The position numbers and the translations under genes were made by a program. The notes under the pieces are model-generated. The model was not told the origin of the DNA. It ran no database searches and worked only from the letters and a program-made list of their open reading frames with translations. DNA of 64,000 nt, from positions 46,438 to 110,437 of the IMG/VR virus record IMGVR_UViG_3300032323_001119. One strand, 5' to 3'. The DNA comes from a virus. Of this stretch, positions 6,994-46,484 are shown one piece after another. How positions within the stretch are numbered: position 1 is the first letter of the stretch; each line of letters opens with the position of its first letter.

Positions 6994-7069
6994 TGGTGCC
7001 CCTGAAAGGAATCGAACCTCCGACACGCAGGGTAGAAACCTGCTGCTCTATCCACTGAGCTACAAAGGC
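6994..7069 (-). tRNA. tRNA-Arg(UCU)
   Basis: Cloverleaf GCCTTTG...CAGGGGC-ACCA; anticodon arm GCAGG-TTTCTAC-CCTGC; T loop TTCGATT. Confidence 0.93.
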
Positions 7070-7073
7070 TTAG

Positions 7074-7147
7074 TGTGCCAGGTAGGACTTGAACCTACGA
7101 TTACCGAATTATGAGTTCGGGGCTTTAACCAACTAAGCTACTGGCAC
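7074..7147 (-). tRNA. tRNA with CAU anticodon, probably Ile2 (lysidine type), possibly Met; CCA not encoded
   Basis: Acceptor stem GTGCCAG/CTGGCAC; anticodon arm CCGAA-CTCATAA-TTCGG; C4 and C5 in the acceptor stem as in TilS substrates. Confidence 0.85.
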
Positions 7148-32445: not shown

Positions 32446-32894
32446 TATACTTCTTCCAGTGAAATAGATACATCCCAAAATGCCTGTGGAGCATCAGATA
32501 TTTTTTCTTTTACATTTCTTTTAATTAAATTAAATGAGCAGGCTGTAAATGACGCAAGGAATTCCTCTGTTCTTGTAGAGTTATATGCAATTCGTACATT
32601 AAAAGTTCCCTGCCCTTTAGCGCTTAAATAAAATGTTCTTAGGTCTTCTGCCCCCCAAAAGCCATCTACGGTCATTGTAGAGTATGATGGAACCGTGCTC
32701 CATGAGGTAGATACAGTCTTCTTATCGGCTATAAACAGCTTTCTAAGGCTTCCATTGGCCATCCTAGCAGTTCTTTCAAACCTTTGTGTATCTATAGATA
32801 TAGGGGATCTATTATGTTCTGTTAATTGACGCCATGCGTTAGTAGAGTCTTGTATAAACAAGGCTGCACCTACTGGTAAAATTAAAGCTGGCAT
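32445..32894 (-). CDS. Distal tail (Dit-like) protein
   Basis: Directly after TMP; RMANGSLR...SW...VSISLEEV. Confidence 0.65.
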   Translation of the reverse strand: MPALILPVGAALFIQDSTNAWRQLTEHNRSPISIDTQRFERTARMANGSLRKLFIADKKTVSTSWSTVPSYSTMTVDGFWGAEDLRTFYLSAKGQGTFNVRIAYNSTRTEEFLASFTACSFNLIKRNVKEKISDAPQAFWDVSISLEEV

Positions 32895-35800
32895 TATATA
32901 TTCTTCCCCTGTCCTACCATTTTAACATTAATCTTAGCTTTTTGTCCAATAACAACCTCAGCCTTTTTAACAATCATATTAGACAATGCTTCGACATCCA
33001 TTCCTTCTGATGCGTAAATATTTTGGTTAACAACATAAGAGTTGCCTGAAACAGCACCATCTCTTACATTATACTGAGCTTGGTTAAAATTATATCTTGG
33101 CGATGCCGCTGCTAATGTATTCATTACATCGTTTGGCATAATATTTGCTTTATTCTTTAAGTGTACAAACTCTGGTCCTCTTTCTCCAACCAGGAACATT
33201 CCGCTTGCATTTTCAACACCAGTGGCAGCCTTACCTGCAAAGACTATGTTACCGTCTTTTTTGCTTCTTGAATATTTTTGTCCATTCCAAATAAATGTTT
33301 CGCCTAGCTGCAAGTCTAGTCTATCTTTAATTGCATCACGAGCCTGTGCATTAAGAACCTTTATCTTTTTACCATCAAATTCTTTTTCTTCCAGCTGGTT
33401 GCTGTAGTTACCAGTAACCTTTATATTTCTTCTTAGCGTAGGATCTCCATTTGCACCCTTTATGGCATTTACAACATCCTTAAGAGTTGCCCCACCCTTA
33501 ATACTATTTGCGAGTGCTTCATTAACTCCTGCGCCAGTTCCAGATTTTAATAGAAGGTCTAGTGCATTTTGTTGTGGAGAAACTGGAACCTTAGTTGTAG
33601 TTGTAACTGGGCCAGTAGATGTTAATTCAGTAGTAGTTTTTGTTGTATATCTTGGCATTTTTTCGCCAGTTACGGCTTCCATTGCAGCCACAAATCCTGC
33701 TGCTGCTTCTTTATTTTTCTTCACATACTCTTGAATTGATTGTCCAGCTGCAGCTGCATTTCCGTAAAGAGCAGTCATAGAATCATTAACCTTTTTAATA
33801 GCAGCTTCCTGCTTATCATATCTAGACTTAAGCTTATCTAAACTTTCTCCAGCAATTGCTGCCGAATCAGAAAGTTTTTGCTGCTTATCTCCTAGCGCTT
33901 CAGCGGCTGCTTTAAGAGGCTTGTTAGCTGCTTCTGTAGCTTTATCTATTGCTCTCATCTGTGCTTCTGTTTGTTGCTGAGAAGTTAAAGACTCTAAATC
34001 AATTCTTAAGCTTTGCGCCTTCTCAGTGTCTCCAGTTGCGGCAGCATTTTGCATTTCAATTCTAGTTTTTTCAATTTGTCTTCCTAGATCTGCGTCTTGC
34101 TGTGCTGCCGACAAAGCCTTCTTTCTTGCTTCTGCAAGCTTATTGTTTGCATCTATTTGCTTGTTTAAAGCCTTTAGTCTATCTCTATCAGAAATTTGCT
34201 GAGCAACAGTCTGTCCCTTAAGGGCCTTTGTGTAGTTTGCAATTTGGCCCTTTAGTTTATCTAGGCTTGCATACTGCTCTTTTAGTATTCCAGTTCTATT
34301 TGTAGACTGTACTGAATCTGATATTGCTGCAAAAGAGTCTGCGATTACTTTAGTTTGTGCTGCGTTTAATGCAGAAAGATCTCCGTTAAATCCTTGTGCT
34401 TGAAGTCTAATTTTTTGCCAAACACTGACAATGGTGTCAGAACCATTAATCATCTTCTTTACTTCAGGATTTGTCTTAGCCATTTCATTAATAGTGCCTT
34501 GTGTAATTGCTGTACCAGCTTCTCTAGACTTGTTTATTTTGTCTATCATTATCTTTTCAGCTTCTGCATATGTAAGAGACTTTGTCTTACCGCTTAAATC
34601 TTTAGCAACAAGTCTTTCTCTTTTGGCAATTAAATCATTGATTCCAGTTTCAGTTGCCATAAGAGCAGTATTTAAAGATGCCGCCTTTTCTTTATTTCCC
34701 TGATCTCTTGTATCAGCACCAAAGCTAGTAACTGCTGAAACTGCTGCAGATTGTGGATCGGTAATTGCTTTGAACTGTGCATTACCCATTGTTGCAGTAA
34801 TTGATTGATCTTTTTTATTTGACAGCTGAAGCATAGTATAAACTTTTTTAGTTGCCTCATCTGCAGACATTCCAGCTGCAATTAGCTGCTCTTTAATTCT
34901 ACGTACAGCATCAGGCACCTTGTTTGAAGGCTGTCTATCTAGTGCTTTAATCTGCTCTCCAAAAGTTTCTTTTACTTCTTTCTTTAATTCTTTGTATTCT
35001 GCAATTGTCATCTGGAATGGAGTCCCGCCATCTTTCATGCTTTCATACACAAGCTTATTTGCAGCCGCCATATCCTTGGCATCCTGAATAGTATCTTTAA
35101 TTTTTGATCCGAAGTCTGTAAATCTTAGGTTAGCTTTTTTAGCTGCTTCTGCAGTCATTCCAAATGTAGATATATTAAGTTCTTGTCCCTTTTTGTAGTT
35201 CTGCCACATCTTGTATCCAGCAATACCTGCTAGAGTTACTGCTGCTAGTGGGGCAACTAGTCCTGCTGCTGCAGCTGCGGTTGCACCAAATCCAGCTGAT
35301 GCCATTCCTGCTGTTGCTGCACTTGCTGCAGCACGTTTTGCAACCATTCCGCCTATGCCTTTTATAAGAGATGGGCCAGCCATTGATCCAACCATTGAGC
35401 CCATCATCATTCCATTTTGTCCACCAAGGGCATTTCCTATTGCTCCCCCTGCTGCCATTCCACCCATAGTGCCAAGCATCATGCCTCCAGCGCCTTGGCC
35501 TAGTTCTGGGTTTACGACACCCTTTGCTCTCATATATTGAACTGGATGTAACATTGCTGATGTAGAATAACGAGCATTTGCCATAAACGATCTTCTAATT
35601 GCATTATCTGCTCTGGATGCTGGAACTTCATTGCCACGTCTATCTATATATGCTGGATTAAAAATTGCTCCTGGAGCATTAGCAGCTATTGATCTTTCTT
35701 CTCCAATTTTATTTTTGCGATTCTGTATCATCCCAGCAGTTCTATATCCTGAATCTTTTATTCTAGTCCCAAGTGAGCTTATACTTGATGATATATCTGA

Positions 35801-38800
35801 AGCTGCAATTCTAGCACTTGTTATTAATCTTGTAGATGCTGCCTTAAGTCCATTAGAGATAGAAGAAAATGCTGAATCTATTGCTACGTTAGCTCTTTGT
35901 AATGGAAGCTTTAACCCTGGCATGTAAGGCAAAGATCCTTGCAGTGTAGGAACATTTGTCACTACACCCTTTCCACCAACAAATGAAGTTGTCCCTACAG
36001 ATAGTGGCCCAGGCTTAGGTGGAGTAGTAGCAACTGGCATCGGTGCTCTTGATGCATTAAGGTTGTTTAAATAAAGCTGTCCTATTGCCCTCTGACTTGG
36101 ATCTCCTGATTTTAAAAGACGGTTAGCATGCTCTTTAGATGTAACTTGGCTAACATCAGAAACCTTTTCGCCATAACCTATTTTACTAGATTTGACTATA
36201 CCGCCTAGCATAAATCCTGGAATTATCTTGCCGCTCTGTTGTGGGCTAAATATTTCTGGACCCTTTTCTCCAACTAAATAGCTTTGTCCTGGAGATACTG
36301 GTCCTCCCATTTCTCTTTTACCATCAATGCCAAATATCTTTTTCTTAAGATCGTCTGTAATTGGTGTATTCTTTTTTGAATCCCAATTTAAGTATTTTTT
36401 CTTTAAAATATCTTTATCTATTGGAGAAAGTTGTTTTAAAACATTTCTGTCTGAAATCATATCGCTGGCAGCAGATCTAATTACTGCATCTAAAGCGTCT
36501 GGCTCAAGTCCATTCTTCAGTGTGCCGTCTGGCATCTTTACATAGCCATAAGGCTTTTCTTTTGCTAAAGCTGCTGCAAACTTATCGTATAAAAGCTTTT
36601 GAGTATTTTTTCTTAATCCAGTTCCAGCAAACAGCGTTTCTGCCATTTTAATTGATAAGGAGTTTACTCCCCATGGAGCAGATTCATACATGCTAGGTTT
36701 AGGGGCACCAGTTGGTCCAAAACCTGCACCTATTCTTCTCATGGCTATACCCTTTAAGACATTGCCAATTATTCCTCCACCATTAAATCCGTTTAGAGGA
36801 GTCTTAAAAGAATTGTCGCTTAGAGATATTGCATGACCTCTTTGACGTATTCTTAATTCAGCTTCGTCTTTTAACTTCTTTAATGCTGCTGGTGTAAGTG
36901 CCTTAGCTTTTGCAATTTCAACAGAAGAATGAATTCCATGGAACTCTTGCCAATTAACTGCTCTTCCATCTTCTAGCCTTTTAATCATTGCAGCATAAGC
37001 TTTAGCTTCATCTGGAGTTAAATCAAATCTTGATATGGTAGTCTTTAGTCTTGGTAGAACTGCATCAATTTCATCAATCATTGCTTTATGATATTGATCT
37101 GGAGTCATACCCTTTGGAATTGACAATGTGGACTCTGCAAAGAATCTCTTTGCTCCGCCCTTTACTCCGAGCAAGTTAATACGTGCCTGCTCTTTCATCG
37201 AAATCATTTCTTCTTCATAGGCTCTTTTACCAGAAGCCATCTTAAATACTCCAGCCGTTCCAACATCAGCCAATGTGCTTCCAGAAAGATTATCTCTACT
37301 TAAATCTCTATCTCCTCTTAAATTAGCTGCAACTAATTGCTTAAAGTAATCTTCTCGTGTAAATGATCCTGACTTATTTACAAATGCTTCGTCATAAGGA
37401 GACTCTAGTACAAGCAGCTTTCTCTTTCCAGTTGGATCTGTAGGGTCAAGCATGGTTCTAATTTCTTGTCTTGGAGCATTTAATCCATGTGCATCTCTTG
37501 CAATAATAGTTGCACGTTGCTCTGCTAGGGCTGCAGTTTCATCCATTACTGGTTTAACAAATACTTTAGTTCCATCTGGTTTTTCATAAACTCCACCAAT
37601 TCCAGAAACTGGGAAGCTTCTTCCAGATGAAGGAGAAATTAGTTTTCCAAAGTCTGTTGGAGGCATTGAAGCAAATCTGCTTGTACTCAAAGATTGGCTT
37701 ATTTCATCCATCTGCATTCTTGCGTTTCTTTGTTGCTCTACAGCTTTAAATGATCTAGGCATTCCAAGGAAAAGCTTGCCGTATCCGTACTTGCCTTTCT
37801 TTACCATACCGCCGATCATACCGCCAGCATTAGCAGCTCTAAGTCTTCTTCCTCCAACCATTGCAAACATCTGTCTCTCAGCTTTTCTAGGTTTTGCTGG
37901 AGTTCCAGACTCTCTAAATATTTTCATGTCAGCACCCAATGCTCTGACTAAGCTTTCTGGTATAGGACCTTTACCAGTCCATCTGCCAGTAGAAATCCAT
38001 TTTTCAATAACTGGTATATGTCTTTTAAAATCATCTACATCTTTAAATCCAAATGAAGTTGCAAGCCTGTGTGCTCTAGCTATAGCCTCATCTTTGGTAA
38101 GCGGAACTACGTCATCAATAATTTTTCTTTGCTCTAACCTGTTTCCAAATTTGTTAAAGTCATCATGGGCAGCTTCTCCGTAATAGCCTCGTGCAGCTAT
38201 AGGCCCAGACATTCTTTCTATATGTGCACGATCCCAGCCTGGATTTATGACAGCACCAGGGAACTTTGCTTTTAAAAGATTAAGTATTTGAAGCTTTGCT
38301 CTATTATTATTTTTTGCTGCACCTGCTTTTGCCAGCTTCCAATCTTTGTCTGTTTGTCCTGGCTTTCTTTCAAGCACAAGATCTGGGAAATTCTTTTGCA
38401 TGTAGGCTCTTTGTGCCTCAACATAGCTCATTCCTTTACCAGTTCTTAGATACTCTTCATGACTTGCCAAGGCAAGTCTTACGGCTTTTTCTGCTTCTGC
38501 AATTGCTCTTGAAGGAGTCATATTCATGTCTTTTGAATACTGCAGTATTGCAGTTGCATCATTTTGAATTAAGTTAGGAACAATATGATCTACATAAGGA
38601 GTTCTAACTCCAGTTAGATGATCTATGTACTGAGATGCTTTTTGAAGCTCAGACATCCCTCTTGCTGGACCGTCAAACATGTCTTGCATCTTGCCATAAT
38701 TTCTAATTCCTCTTGTTACCATGCCACCCAAAATTCCGCCATTATTTCTTAGTTGGACTCTTGATCCACTATTAGCTTTATCTAGCAAAGGCTTGTTGGC

Positions 38801-41755
38801 TGCTGTAAACTCTGGGTCGAAATAAGTTTCTCTAGGTGTGAGAATCGCATCTATAACTTTGCCCCCACGATTGTATCCATTTGATGCCATTCTAACTAAA
38901 TCAGGATTATTACGTGAAGCTTCTTGATTCAATATGTAGCTTCCTTCTGGAAGTCTTGCTGGAACCATATCATAATCAATATTTGATGGGCCTGGGACTA
39001 TTGAACCATGCTTTGATGGATCATAAACTAATCCTCCAGTATTTAGCTGTCTAGGTTTTGTAGTCTGAATACTATACCCTGCGCCTGATGTTCTAACGCC
39101 AAGCCCACGAGCAATTGAATCTACAAGCTTAGAAGTTTCTGTTTTGTGAAAAAGCTCTTTCATGTTTGACTTGCCTGCTGCGCTTACAACTGGCTGTGTC
39201 GTTAATGGAACTGTAGTTAAACTCAAGGTTCTTGCCTGTGCTGTTGCAACACCTTGAGCCGTTTGAACCATCATTGCTTCTACTTGTGCATTTAATGCAA
39301 ATATTTTTGCTCTTGCTGCTTCTACTGTAATCTTACCAGCTTGCAACTGTTTAACAATTAATGCTGTTTCGTCTGCCGCTAAAGATGTTATCTTTGTCAT
39401 TTGTGGCAAAAGTGCCTGATATGAATCTGATAATGATGCGGTTACTGTACCAGTTGCTGCTATTTCAGTCTTAAGTGTTGCTAATTCTGCTTTTGACTGC
39501 ATAGCAATTGCTGCTGTCATTGAGTGCCACTTAGCAGCTTCTGCTGCAACTACACCAGTAGATACACCGTTTACAGAACTCAGCCCTTGAACTCTTGGCA
39601 GATCATCTGACATGTAAAGTTGTGGGGCATTCGAAATTCTTTGATTTACTGGCTTTGGACCTGGTACTGTAGAGAATATTGTTTCTTCTGCTCTTTGCTG
39701 TGGCGTCTTTGATCCAGTTGGAATCATGTGAGACATGTCTCTAGAATATGCTCTACCTACAAGAGGATTATTCTTATCTACTATTCTTCCTCCGCCTGCC
39801 ATTACTGGGTTTCCAGCAACAGTAGACATACTATTGGATGTAGCAATAGTCGAACTCATTGCGCTTTGCTTTAGTCTATCAAATGATGCCGCAAGGGTCA
39901 TTACTGCATCTGAGAATGTAGCAGCAGCTTTTGTATCGCTATAGAATGATTGCTCTACTGTTTTGGCAGCAGCAGATGCTGCCATTAATTCTGGTGTTAA
40001 TAATTTAAAGCCAGTCCCACCCTTACCGATGTTCTTAAGGGCTAATATTCCTTTTATTATATATCCGAAGAAGTTTGCAAGCACACCAGTAAGCATGATT
40101 ATAGGACCAGCAATTGCTGTAAGTCCACCAATAAATCCTAGAACAGCTTTAATTGGACCTGGCAGATTTCCAATAAACTTTAAAATTCCATCTATAGCAT
40201 TTAATACAAATGCACCAATTTTTAAGAATTGTTCTCCAACTACCGCAAGTTCTGCTTTTACAGATTCAAGTGCTCTTCTGTATTTACCAGATGCAGATTC
40301 TGTAAGCGCTGTTAATTCTCGTGCTGAAATTGCTGCTAAGTCTTGTGTGCTTGCTTTCATCAGGTCTAAAACTTGAAGAGTCTGGCTTCCTTCTTTACCA
40401 AGGTTTTCAAACAATGCGTTGATTCTAGCAAATTGAAATTTACCGAATAGCTGTTCAATTGCTCTTGCTCTTTGTAGAGGCTCAAGTGAATCTAGGGAAT
40501 CCTTGAGTGCCATAATTGTTCCAGTTAGATTTCCAGCATTTTTATTTACAATGCCAGACAAGTCTATTCCGAATCCCATAAACATTTCTTTGGCAACCTT
40601 TGTAGGGTTAATTACAGATGCTAAAGCTGACTTTAATGCGTTGGCACTTTCTGATGCGTTAATTCCACCTTCACGCATAGCAGTTAGATAAAGAGCAAGG
40701 TCTTGTACTTCTCCACCAAGTGCTTTTACTACTGGGCCTGCTTTTGGAATAGCAGTTACTAAATCATCTAGAGTAGTAGATGTCTGGTTTTCAACTGCGT
40801 TCAAGAAGTCGATTGACTCGGCAAGTTCCATTGTATTTTGTCCGAAGGCTGTTTGAATAGCAAGCGTAGCCTTCATAGCTTCTTGTCTATCTACTTCACC
40901 AAGAATTGCAAGTCTAGTTGTTTGTCTTGTAGAGTCTATAAGATCTGCGCCCTGTTTTCCAGTAGCAGCAATATCTGCGGCAAGTGCAATAGTTTCTGTA
41001 AAGTTTGCTCCTAATCCAGAAGCTAATTCTCTAGATACTGCCATAACATCTTTACGAACCTGAAGAAGATCGGCACTTGATGTTGCAACTAATCCGCCAT
41101 AAACCTTTGTAAGTCTTACAAGCTCTTCATCTGCTTGTCTAAATGCTTTTGCTGCAGCCATACCAAACGCTGCAAGTGGCACAGTTAATCCTACTGTTAA
41201 CTGGCGACCAGCCCACTGTGTATTCTTACCCCAATTGATAAGCTGATTCGATCCATCCATCATTACCTTGTTCATGATGGCAAGTTCTTGTCTTAGAAGA
41301 GCTGACTTATTTTTTGTAACGTCTAGTCCAGATTGAACCATTACGTTATATTGCATTAAGCCTTGTGCATTTTTACCAAGCGGCTGGATAATTGAATTCT
41401 CAAGCATTACCTGCTGCTTAGCAAGGTCTCGAACTAAATTGCTAGTCTTCTGTGTATGTCCTTGCCATGTTCTGAAGTACTGGCCAAGCTTCATTCTGCC
41501 GCTGTCTAAATTTTGTCCAAACTTAGATACGTCTGATGTAAGAGTTACGAAGTGTCTAGAAAACTGGCCAGTGGAGCGCATGGTTTCGTCAAACTGACGA
41601 TTCATGACTCCAACCTGGCTAGTTAGGTTTTTATTTAAACCAATTGTTGTAGCTTGGAGTTTTAAGAGTTGCGAAGTAACCGCTTGTAACTGCGCTGTTA
41701 GGCTAGAAAAATTAGCCGTCGCAGTTATGTTGGTTACTATATTTTGATCTGCCAA
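32894..41755 (-). CDS. Tape measure protein (2953 aa) with inserted non-helical modules
   Basis: Follows the tail chaperones; TP901-type core (LTVGLTVPLAAFG, ESANALK); LVGExGPE motifs; hydrophobic Gly/Ala segments. Confidence 0.92.
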   Translation of the reverse strand: MADQNIVTNITATANFSSLTAQLQAVTSQLLKLQATTIGLNKNLTSQVGVMNRQFDETMRSTGQFSRHFVTLTSDVSKFGQNLDSGRMKLGQYFRTWQGHTQKTSNLVRDLAKQQVMLENSIIQPLGKNAQGLMQYNVMVQSGLDVTKNKSALLRQELAIMNKVMMDGSNQLINWGKNTQWAGRQLTVGLTVPLAAFGMAAAKAFRQADEELVRLTKVYGGLVATSSADLLQVRKDVMAVSRELASGLGANFTETIALAADIAATGKQGADLIDSTRQTTRLAILGEVDRQEAMKATLAIQTAFGQNTMELAESIDFLNAVENQTSTTLDDLVTAIPKAGPVVKALGGEVQDLALYLTAMREGGINASESANALKSALASVINPTKVAKEMFMGFGIDLSGIVNKNAGNLTGTIMALKDSLDSLEPLQRARAIEQLFGKFQFARINALFENLGKEGSQTLQVLDLMKASTQDLAAISARELTALTESASGKYRRALESVKAELAVVGEQFLKIGAFVLNAIDGILKFIGNLPGPIKAVLGFIGGLTAIAGPIIMLTGVLANFFGYIIKGILALKNIGKGGTGFKLLTPELMAASAAAKTVEQSFYSDTKAAATFSDAVMTLAASFDRLKQSAMSSTIATSNSMSTVAGNPVMAGGGRIVDKNNPLVGRAYSRDMSHMIPTGSKTPQQRAEETIFSTVPGPKPVNQRISNAPQLYMSDDLPRVQGLSSVNGVSTGVVAAEAAKWHSMTAAIAMQSKAELATLKTEIAATGTVTASLSDSYQALLPQMTKITSLAADETALIVKQLQAGKITVEAARAKIFALNAQVEAMMVQTAQGVATAQARTLSLTTVPLTTQPVVSAAGKSNMKELFHKTETSKLVDSIARGLGVRTSGAGYSIQTTKPRQLNTGGLVYDPSKHGSIVPGPSNIDYDMVPARLPEGSYILNQEASRNNPDLVRMASNGYNRGGKVIDAILTPRETYFDPEFTAANKPLLDKANSGSRVQLRNNGGILGGMVTRGIRNYGKMQDMFDGPARGMSELQKASQYIDHLTGVRTPYVDHIVPNLIQNDATAILQYSKDMNMTPSRAIAEAEKAVRLALASHEEYLRTGKGMSYVEAQRAYMQKNFPDLVLERKPGQTDKDWKLAKAGAAKNNNRAKLQILNLLKAKFPGAVINPGWDRAHIERMSGPIAARGYYGEAAHDDFNKFGNRLEQRKIIDDVVPLTKDEAIARAHRLATSFGFKDVDDFKRHIPVIEKWISTGRWTGKGPIPESLVRALGADMKIFRESGTPAKPRKAERQMFAMVGGRRLRAANAGGMIGGMVKKGKYGYGKLFLGMPRSFKAVEQQRNARMQMDEISQSLSTSRFASMPPTDFGKLISPSSGRSFPVSGIGGVYEKPDGTKVFVKPVMDETAALAEQRATIIARDAHGLNAPRQEIRTMLDPTDPTGKRKLLVLESPYDEAFVNKSGSFTREDYFKQLVAANLRGDRDLSRDNLSGSTLADVGTAGVFKMASGKRAYEEEMISMKEQARINLLGVKGGAKRFFAESTLSIPKGMTPDQYHKAMIDEIDAVLPRLKTTISRFDLTPDEAKAYAAMIKRLEDGRAVNWQEFHGIHSSVEIAKAKALTPAALKKLKDEAELRIRQRGHAISLSDNSFKTPLNGFNGGGIIGNVLKGIAMRRIGAGFGPTGAPKPSMYESAPWGVNSLSIKMAETLFAGTGLRKNTQKLLYDKFAAALAKEKPYGYVKMPDGTLKNGLEPDALDAVIRSAASDMISDRNVLKQLSPIDKDILKKKYLNWDSKKNTPITDDLKKKIFGIDGKREMGGPVSPGQSYLVGEKGPEIFSPQQSGKIIPGFMLGGIVKSSKIGYGEKVSDVSQVTSKEHANRLLKSGDPSQRAIGQLYLNNLNASRAPMPVATTPPKPGPLSVGTTSFVGGKGVVTNVPTLQGSLPYMPGLKLPLQRANVAIDSAFSSISNGLKAASTRLITSARIAASDISSSISSLGTRIKDSGYRTAGMIQNRKNKIGEERSIAANAPGAIFNPAYIDRRGNEVPASRADNAIRRSFMANARYSTSAMLHPVQYMRAKGVVNPELGQGAGGMMLGTMGGMAAGGAIGNALGGQNGMMMGSMVGSMAGPSLIKGIGGMVAKRAAASAATAGMASAGFGATAAAAAGLVAPLAAVTLAGIAGYKMWQNYKKGQELNISTFGMTAEAAKKANLRFTDFGSKIKDTIQDAKDMAAANKLVYESMKDGGTPFQMTIAEYKELKKEVKETFGEQIKALDRQPSNKVPDAVRRIKEQLIAAGMSADEATKKVYTMLQLSNKKDQSITATMGNAQFKAITDPQSAAVSAVTSFGADTRDQGNKEKAASLNTALMATETGINDLIAKRERLVAKDLSGKTKSLTYAEAEKIMIDKINKSREAGTAITQGTINEMAKTNPEVKKMINGSDTIVSVWQKIRLQAQGFNGDLSALNAAQTKVIADSFAAISDSVQSTNRTGILKEQYASLDKLKGQIANYTKALKGQTVAQQISDRDRLKALNKQIDANNKLAEARKKALSAAQQDADLGRQIEKTRIEMQNAAATGDTEKAQSLRIDLESLTSQQQTEAQMRAIDKATEAANKPLKAAAEALGDKQQKLSDSAAIAGESLDKLKSRYDKQEAAIKKVNDSMTALYGNAAAAGQSIQEYVKKNKEAAAGFVAAMEAVTGEKMPRYTTKTTTELTSTGPVTTTTKVPVSPQQNALDLLLKSGTGAGVNEALANSIKGGATLKDVVNAIKGANGDPTLRRNIKVTGNYSNQLEEKEFDGKKIKVLNAQARDAIKDRLDLQLGETFIWNGQKYSRSKKDGNIVFAGKAATGVENASGMFLVGERGPEFVHLKNKANIMPNDVMNTLAAASPRYNFNQAQYNVRDGAVSGNSYVVNQNIYASEGMDVEALSNMIVKKAEVVIGQKAKINVKMVGQGKNI

Positions 41756-46433: not shown

Positions 46434-46484
46434 TTATTACTCCTTTTTCTAGGTAAAACCATTATAGCATTGTATAATTAAAAT

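Follow-up and report, generated by a model that had tools for sequence, protein, structure and literature searches.

Within a 64,000-nucleotide stretch of viral DNA (the window), the gene for the tape measure protein (TMP) encodes a self-contained, exchangeable cassette of ~330 amino acids (aa), which is set between Gly-rich linkers about midway along the protein and does not belong to the ruler itself. The window covers the right-hand end, 64 kb (positions 46,438 to 110,437), of the 110,437-bp IMG/VR virus record IMGVR_UViG_3300032323_001119, which has direct terminal repeats. The cassette is predicted to adopt a bilobal protein-kinase-like fold of the atypical class (CotH / CtkA-HipA / PI4KII-LepB-like), and this prediction is well supported. 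We consider it moderately probable that the cassette is an active kinase that is carried in the virion, delivered with the TMP, and directed at the host.

A first-pass annotation made from the DNA letters had placed a HipA/PI3K-like kinase module inside the TMP at 36800-37770 on the minus strand. This segment corresponds to aa 1329-1652 of a single 2953-aa TMP open reading frame (ORF), and it is nearly equal to the cassette bounds (aa 1325-1655), which come from an independent comparison with a relative that has no cassette. All five motifs that had been named were found in this segment, at the places and in the order claimed (Table 1), and each of the residues that had been called catalytic is invariant or nearly so among 129 modules and falls on the expected secondary-structure element of the AlphaFold2 model. 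The 129 aligned modules were taken from cluster representatives at 50% identity and are 31-92% identical to the window copy. K1401, E1412, N1489, D1497, and G1388 are present in 129/129 modules, D1484 and L1485 in 128, G1499 in 126, and Y1390 in 125. D1482 is found in 123 modules, and the other six have Asn at this position. Two serines are conserved as well, S1380 (Ser in 128 of the 129) and S1508 (Ser in 127 and Thr in 2), while the first ~45 and the last ~50 residues of the segment are poorly conserved. The majority of the modules have a catalytic loop of the form D-K-D-L-x3-N; the window copy reads G-D-R-D-L-S-R-D-N, then D-V-G. The HRDxxxxN and DRHxxN loops of kinases are precedents for the location of D1484 five residues before N1489. 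At the level of the alignment, this pattern of conservation shows selection on the putative active site. A chance string of motifs was ruled out by the conservation of the catalytic residues over the 129 modules.

The cassette was folded by AlphaFold2 with a 41-sequence alignment, from which the most divergent members (31-35% identity) were left out; a TMP residue number is the model residue i + 1327. The model had a predicted local distance difference test score (pLDDT) of 86.3 and a predicted template modelling score (pTM) of 0.80, and its elements follow each other in the canonical kinase order. The order begins with a strand, the Gly-rich loop, a second strand, the strand that carries K1401, the helix that carries E1412, two strands, and a helix ending at R1480. 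After R1480 come the loop D1482-x-D1484-L-x3-N1489, a short hairpin, D1497-V-G, and a helical C-lobe (helices in model residues 193-283). The features of the protein-kinase-like superfamily, namely a bilobal fold, a beta-3 Lys and a helix-C Glu, and a D-x4-N loop followed by DxG, can thus be recognized in the predicted structure and the alignment.

We compared the model with 48,161 representative PDB chains by VIA-align, a method that does not depend on Foldseek. The top match was CotH (5jda), with Z 11.6 over 218 aa at 4.0 A (model residues 33-278). PI4KII-alpha (Z 9.8), CtkA (9.6), MavQ (9.6), Fam20C (8.8), HipA (8.7), actin-fragmin kinase (8.3), HipT (8.1), and PI4KIII-beta and VPS34 (8.0) were also matched, and the best 50 matches were all kinase-fold proteins (50/50). 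When the Foldseek candidates were given a second look by VIA-align, Z was 10.5 for CtkA, 9.9 for PI4KII-alpha, and 9.2 for both HipA and LepB. Shewanella HipA (Z 8.7-9.2) and CtkA (10.5) are level with other atypical kinases. As a negative control, the neighbouring cassette modX was folded and searched in the same way, and it gave no match above Z 4.2. Foldseek, by which the first-pass annotation had proposed to check the fold, returned only kinases among the PDB matches listed (HipA with probability 0.99, CtkA with 0.98, and RioK1 with 0.97). The top viral structural matches were large multi-domain phage proteins named portal, ADP-ribosyltransferase, or PI3K/PI4K-domain proteins. A lysin or cell-wall enzyme was ruled out because the structure searches gave no such match.

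Sequence searches gave no family for the module. Neither a kinase nor any significant family was found in Pfam (E up to 1), in PHROGs, or among PDB sequences (single sequence and profile). PF07804, PF00454, and PF08757 were all without a match when Pfam was run on each of the 41 members at E up to 10. HipA_C (PF07804) had no match at E up to 1 in the six-frame translation of the genome, and hhalign of the module against E. coli HipA gave a probability of 0.4%. The nearest named clusters in the ESM Atlas were LepB_N, PI3_PI4_kinase, and HipA_2, all at 0.90, and a cluster scoring 0.90 has PF00454 on 38% of its members; both are leads only. Because no Pfam, PHROG, or PDB sequence model detects it, the module is, as judged from its sequence, a new family (a sequence orphan) within the predicted atypical kinase fold class and not a member of the HipA, PI3K/PI4K, or CotH families. 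The earlier HipA/PI3K-like label is therefore supported for the predicted fold class, in which HipA/CtkA, PI3K/PI4K, and also CotH are nearest, and it does not hold for the families themselves, whose sequence models do not match.

The limits of the cassette were given by a relative that does without it. The TMP of this relative (L135) aligns to the window TMP at aa 1-1324 and then directly at aa 1656-1860, and the missing block is aa 1325-1655. A Gly-rich linker, GG-[IM]-[IL]-G-x-[MV]-V..G, brackets the cassette, and its copies are at aa 1006, 1311, 1660, and 1851. More distant relatives have a 45-aa repeat of the type ..PAMLSPGEAVIPA..IPG on both sides of the cassette. We examined how often the cassette is present in the 80 IMG/VR loci with TMP cores closest to that of the window (67-98% identity). 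Thirty-three of these TMPs have the kinase, 30 are complete ORFs without it, and 17 are cut off, so that 63 could be assessed; the cassette is optional among TMPs with cores that are 83-93% identical. In L130 and L133, whose cores are 93% and 90% identical to that of the window, a different cassette of 240-260 aa (aa ~1022-1280 of their TMPs) takes the place of modX and the kinase. Since L135 lacks the kinase and L130 and L133 carry another cassette at this place, the kinase is optional and exchangeable. Its position in the TMPs also varies: it is most often near aa 720-1015, and otherwise at ~1000-1300, 1240-1630, 2182, or 2857. The other cassettes differ between TMPs that have the kinase at different positions. 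Among the 150 matches listed, 112 have the N-terminal TMP core of the window and the rest are fragments.

A phmmer search with aa 1328-1658 against 1.84 billion cluster representatives identified 168 proteins at E up to 1e-3, 141 of them at E up to 1e-30, and nearly all are 2000-4400 aa long. The kinase module is present in at least 339 IMG/VR contigs. Every match found was a giant TMP or a fragment of one. The shorter homologues were all contig-end TMP fragments on short contigs, and no free-standing homologue of the module was found. Only one match was obtained from 185,579 bacterial and archaeal species genomes. This single match (L124, 5001-5798) is on the 85-kb contig CAZCDW010000001.1 in a metagenome-assembled genome named 'uncultured Bifidobacterium'. 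The contig is probably a phage contig swept into the Bifidobacterium bin, and thus there was no sign of prophage or cellular copies in these genomes.

The carrier was recognized as a TMP by its sequence families and by the position of its gene. In its N-terminal third there are matches to nine PHROG families labelled 'tail length tape measure protein', the best being phrog_10030 (E 2e-119), and over its first 650 aa it shares 37% identity with the protein annotated as TMP in Streptomyces phage BoomerJR. Upstream of the TMP gene are a major-tail-protein-like gene and then two small genes, at the place of the two chaperone genes, and this order is the same as in BoomerJR. The cassette region is flanked by two hydrophobic, transmembrane-like blocks (aa 503-573 and aa 2154-2181). 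The PHROG family of TMP C-termini, phrog_1538, matches aa 1809-1902, well before the end of the protein. The architecture suggests a full TMP-like unit (aa 1-1850) with a second unit behind it, made up of a hydrophobic segment, coiled coil, and C-terminus. There are two copies of the GE[KR]GPE motif, which is characteristic of TMP C-termini, at aa 1829 (36251-36271, minus strand) and aa 2857 (33167-33187, minus strand).

The capsid protein shares 59-62% identity with its counterparts in Streptomyces phages of Stanwilliamsviridae, and the TMP core is homologous to that of the same phages. Moreover, the virus record has a WhiB-like gene of family PF02467 (Table 1), a family that among the control genomes had matches in Corynebacterium only. 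Because of the capsid identity, the TMP-core homology, and the WhiB-like gene, the host is probably an actinobacterium. The GC content of 36-40% is a weaker hint, from which a low-GC actinobacterial host is likely. Metagenomes of lake type contain relatives. Two adjacent tRNA genes, for Arg (tct) and Met (cat), are located at 6994-7147 on the minus strand.

The TMPs of siphophages occupy the tail tube, leave it at infection, enter the envelope, and form or line the DNA channel. In our preferred reading, the cassette would be an active ATP-dependent phosphotransferase, of which a virion would hold few copies because the cassette is part of the TMP. It would be expelled together with the TMP when the tail opens. 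The hydrophobic blocks of the TMP would become embedded in the host membrane, so that the cassette region would end up on the cytoplasmic side, where there is ATP. The kinase would then phosphorylate a host target before or during DNA entry and before phage gene expression, either for takeover or for counter-defence. Most likely the target would be a protein, the host being an actinobacterium that uses Ser/Thr signalling. As for the substrate class, protein and lipid are equally open: the top matches CotH and CtkA are protein kinases, and lipid kinases (PI4KII-alpha, MavQ, LepB) tie within ~1 Z.

Several observations weigh against a delivered, active kinase. The kinase call rests on the predicted structure and the residue pattern, and no family sequence model links the module to kinases. 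The Foldseek E-values against the PDB are marginal (~1e-3) and the template modelling scores low (0.2-0.35), and at 8 residues the N1489-to-D1497 interval is short compared with most kinases. Close relatives do without the cassette, and thus it is not required for infection as such. The module was not found by tblastn in 50,697 records of cultured phages. Finally, a folded 30-kDa domain should not fit the lumen of a siphophage tail tube, and the cassette would therefore need to be transported unfolded, be located elsewhere, or be excised in the course of assembly.

We think it unlikely that the cassette is instead a lipid or glycolipid kinase, which phosphorylates a membrane lipid at the entry site after membrane insertion of the TMP. 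In an actinobacterial host, the substrate could be phosphatidylinositol, which actinobacteria make, or its mannosides, and the reaction would help channel formation, alter the envelope, or block superinfection. The transmembrane-like blocks of the TMP and the probable actinobacterial host are consistent with such a role. PI4KII-alpha (Z 9.8-9.9), MavQ (9.6), LepB (9.2), and PI4KIII-beta/VPS34 (~8) are within ~1 Z of the protein kinases, but the top match is the protein kinase CotH (Z 11.6), followed by CtkA (10.5). Similarly, the G-D-R prefix of the catalytic loop in the window copy resembles the GDRH of PI3K/PI4K, whereas the loop of the majority of modules is closer to the protein-kinase HRDLxxxN than to DRHxxN. 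The ESM Atlas clusters LepB_N, PI3_PI4_kinase, and HipA_2 are leads in the same direction, yet PF00454 had no match.

It is less likely still that the kinase, rather than acting after injection, works on the virion itself or inside the cell that makes it. Its role might be autophosphorylation of the TMP, modification of tail proteins or chaperones in assembly, or late action on the host, during TMP synthesis. However, the cassette is optional among TMPs with 83-93% identical cores, which argues that it is not part of the assembly pathway, and the site it occupies differs widely from one TMP to another. Large amounts of TMP are made late in infection, in a cytoplasm rich in ATP, the conserved S1508 and S1380 could be autophosphorylation sites, and action in the producing cell sidesteps the problem of a folded domain in the tail lumen; against this, Thermus phage P23-45 is a precedent for a TMP-fused enzyme that can act after entry. 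Very improbable is a catalytically dead kinase-fold spacer or binding module, which would lengthen the ruler or dock on a host protein without phosphate transfer, or a module that uses the fold for AMPylation or some other reaction dependent on a nucleotide: there are pseudokinases, as well as AMPylases and glutamylases with a kinase fold, and the Asn-to-DxG spacing is unusually short, but the full catalytic set is invariant down to 31% identity, the apparent signature of selection on catalysis, and SelO-like and SidJ-like chains are absent from the best 50 structural matches.

Table 1. Features of the TMP gene and its kinase cassette, with one gene upstream of the window. Coordinates are those of the window unless a different source is given.
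Feature	TMP residues	Coordinates	Strand	Remarks
Kinase cassette, begins at conserved LFLGMP	1328-1655	36791..37774	-	L135 TMP lacks it as a single block; homologues in 168 clusters of giant TMPs
Folded kinase core as predicted (model residues 33-288)	1360-1615	36911..37678	-	Range aligned to CotH, CtkA, PI4KII-alpha, and HipA
Gly-rich loop GIGGVY	1385-1390	37586..37603	-	Strand start, model residues 61-64
VFVKP, with putative ATP-anchoring Lys K1401 on third strand (beta-3)	at 1398	37550..37564	-	Strand is model residues 70-75
Helix C, ALAEQRA, with E1412	at 1409	37511..37531	-	Helix is model residues 79-95
Putative catalytic loop GDRDLSRDNL (D1482, D1484, N1489)	1481-1490	37286..37315	-	Directly after helix 140-153 of the model
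LADVG, with DFG-equivalent, putative metal-binding Asp D1497	at 1495	37259..37273	-	D1497 is in the DxG turn
Upstream Gly-rich linker repeat (..ANAGGMIGGMVKKGKYGYGK)	1308-1327	37775..37834	-	Cassette junction of L135 lies inside it
Downstream Gly-rich linker repeat (NGFNGGGIIGNVLKGIAMRRIG)	1656-1677	36725..36790	-	Recurring motif; L135 alignment resumes at aa 1656
Neighbouring cassette modX	1020-1305	37841..38698	-	In few relatives; model pLDDT 78
Cassette modY, ends in TMP C-terminus-like LVGEKGPE	1680-1850	36206..36718	-	After the kinase in the closest subclade, 16/150 matches listed
TMP ORF (P0001), 2953 aa, TTG start	1-2953	32894..41755	-	One uninterrupted reading frame; Pfam and PHROG TMP matches
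PhageMin_Tail (PF10145) core of TMP	243-438	40442..41029	-	E 4.2e-27, 95.8 bits against a cut-off of 33.2
First hydrophobic, transmembrane-like block of TMP	503-573	40037..40249	-	Kyte-Doolittle 19-residue mean 1.5-2.1
Second hydrophobic, transmembrane-like segment of TMP	2154-2181	35213..35296	-	Kyte-Doolittle mean 1.97
WhiB-like gene (PF02467, 43 bits, above cut-off), locus L205		G000:C1:45132-45305	-	~1.1 kb before window start

The kinase of the window TMP has a further cassette on either side, modX and modY. The cassette modX, just upstream of the kinase, has the invariant residues R-A-H ... Y-x-G-E-A-x-H-D-x-F-N, and its fairly confident model is mostly helical with a small three-stranded sheet. 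The invariant RAH...HDxFN prompted us to consider a His-Me finger nuclease, and this candidate was rejected because the model had no counterpart among known structures (Z 4.2 at best, and E above 0.1 by Foldseek); no family match was found for modX either. In a distant relative, the 4468-aa TMP P0143 combines an M23 peptidase at aa 2198-2291 with the kinase cassette at aa 2857-3132, and therefore one ruler can house both a wall-cutting enzyme and a kinase.

A broader interpretation, which we offer tentatively, is that the middle of the TMP in this lineage is a swappable effector array, in which recombination at the linkers swaps cassettes (the kinase, modX, and others), and each cassette is a pre-made weapon that enters the host before the DNA. 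If so, the kinase would be an anti-defence or takeover effector that acts before any phage gene is expressed, and the array would be a 'polymorphic effector' system housed in a phage tail.

TMPs are usually viewed as rulers and channel formers, and the enzymes commonly found in them only cut the cell wall. If the preferred reading of a delivered, host-directed kinase is true, the cassette would be the second tail-delivered enzyme acting in the cytoplasm after the P23-45 RNA polymerase, and the first one for modifying the host and not for reading the phage genome. The cassette has an apparently intact active site and is found in hundreds of uncultured phages, yet it is optional between near-identical relatives. 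Domain libraries in current use miss this new sequence family of putative atypical kinases. Furthermore, three questions are made testable: how a globular domain is stored in the tail tube or passes through it, which targets a phage has to phosphorylate within seconds of the start of infection, and whether TMP cassettes are a general route of counter-defence.

Enzymes in TMPs (cell-wall hydrolases and the P23-45 polymerase) and predicted virion-borne phage kinases in head-packaged proteins are already known, and literature searches yielded no report of a TMP that carries a kinase cassette. The best structural match, CotH (PF08757), is an atypical kinase of the Bacillus spore coat, and both it and the cassette have the Lys/Glu/Asp/Asn/Asp set. 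However, CotH is a free-standing spore-coat protein without sequence relation to the cassette, which sits in a virion protein. HipA/HipT and Helicobacter pylori CtkA (PF07804) have the fold that is predicted for the cassette (CtkA Z 10.5, HipA 9.2, HipT 8.5-8.8), and in either case the reprogramming of a bacterium could take no more than a few kinase copies. HipA differs in that it has a HipB/HipS partner and an N-terminal domain, whereas the cassette is without both and is internal to a 2953-aa structural protein. The PI3K/PI4K-type kinases (PF00454, PF18640; PI4KII-alpha, LepB, MavQ) resemble the cassette in its predicted fold (Z 8-9.9), in the G-D-R with which the loop begins, and in the DxG turn. 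The resemblance is partial, since their loop is DRHxxN and that of the cassette is D-[KR]-D-L-x3-N, and no sequence model of theirs matches. The Legionella effectors LepB and MavQ are kinases delivered into a target cell, as the putative TMP kinase would be.

Phages are also known to use kinases of their own. The protein kinase of phage T7 is similar in being a phage kinase used against the host, but it is reportedly expressed after entry and not delivered. Injected 'polyvalent' phage proteins carry protein-kinase domains (Iyer et al. 2017, PMC5512222). As in our proposal, these kinases travel in the virion, and the top viral structural matches of the cassette model are such large multi-domain proteins. 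The text of that paper sets the cassette apart from them: the polyvalent-protein kinase domains have lost the whole C-terminal lobe and are located in head-packaged MuF-type proteins (PMC5512222), whereas the model of the cassette keeps a helical C-lobe and its carrier is a TMP.

The cell-wall enzymes embedded in TMPs (M23 peptidase, lysozyme-type, and Rpf-like motifs) are similar to the cassette in being enzymatic modules inside a TMP. Their substrate, peptidoglycan, lies outside the membrane, and they work without ATP, whereas a kinase depends on ATP and hence on access to the cytoplasm. A TMP-fused enzyme that acts in the cytoplasm is known from Thermus phage P23-45: the N-terminal part of its 5002-aa TMP, gp96, is an active virion RNA polymerase that transcribes the pre-early genes (Chaban et al. 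2024, PMC10770324) and was proposed by the authors to work at the TMP pore (PMC10770324). Both would be enzymes that act in the cytoplasm and are built into a giant TMP. The RNA polymerase of gp96 is N-terminal and essential for pre-early transcription, while the cassette is in the middle of its protein, has a predicted kinase fold, and is dispensable in close relatives.

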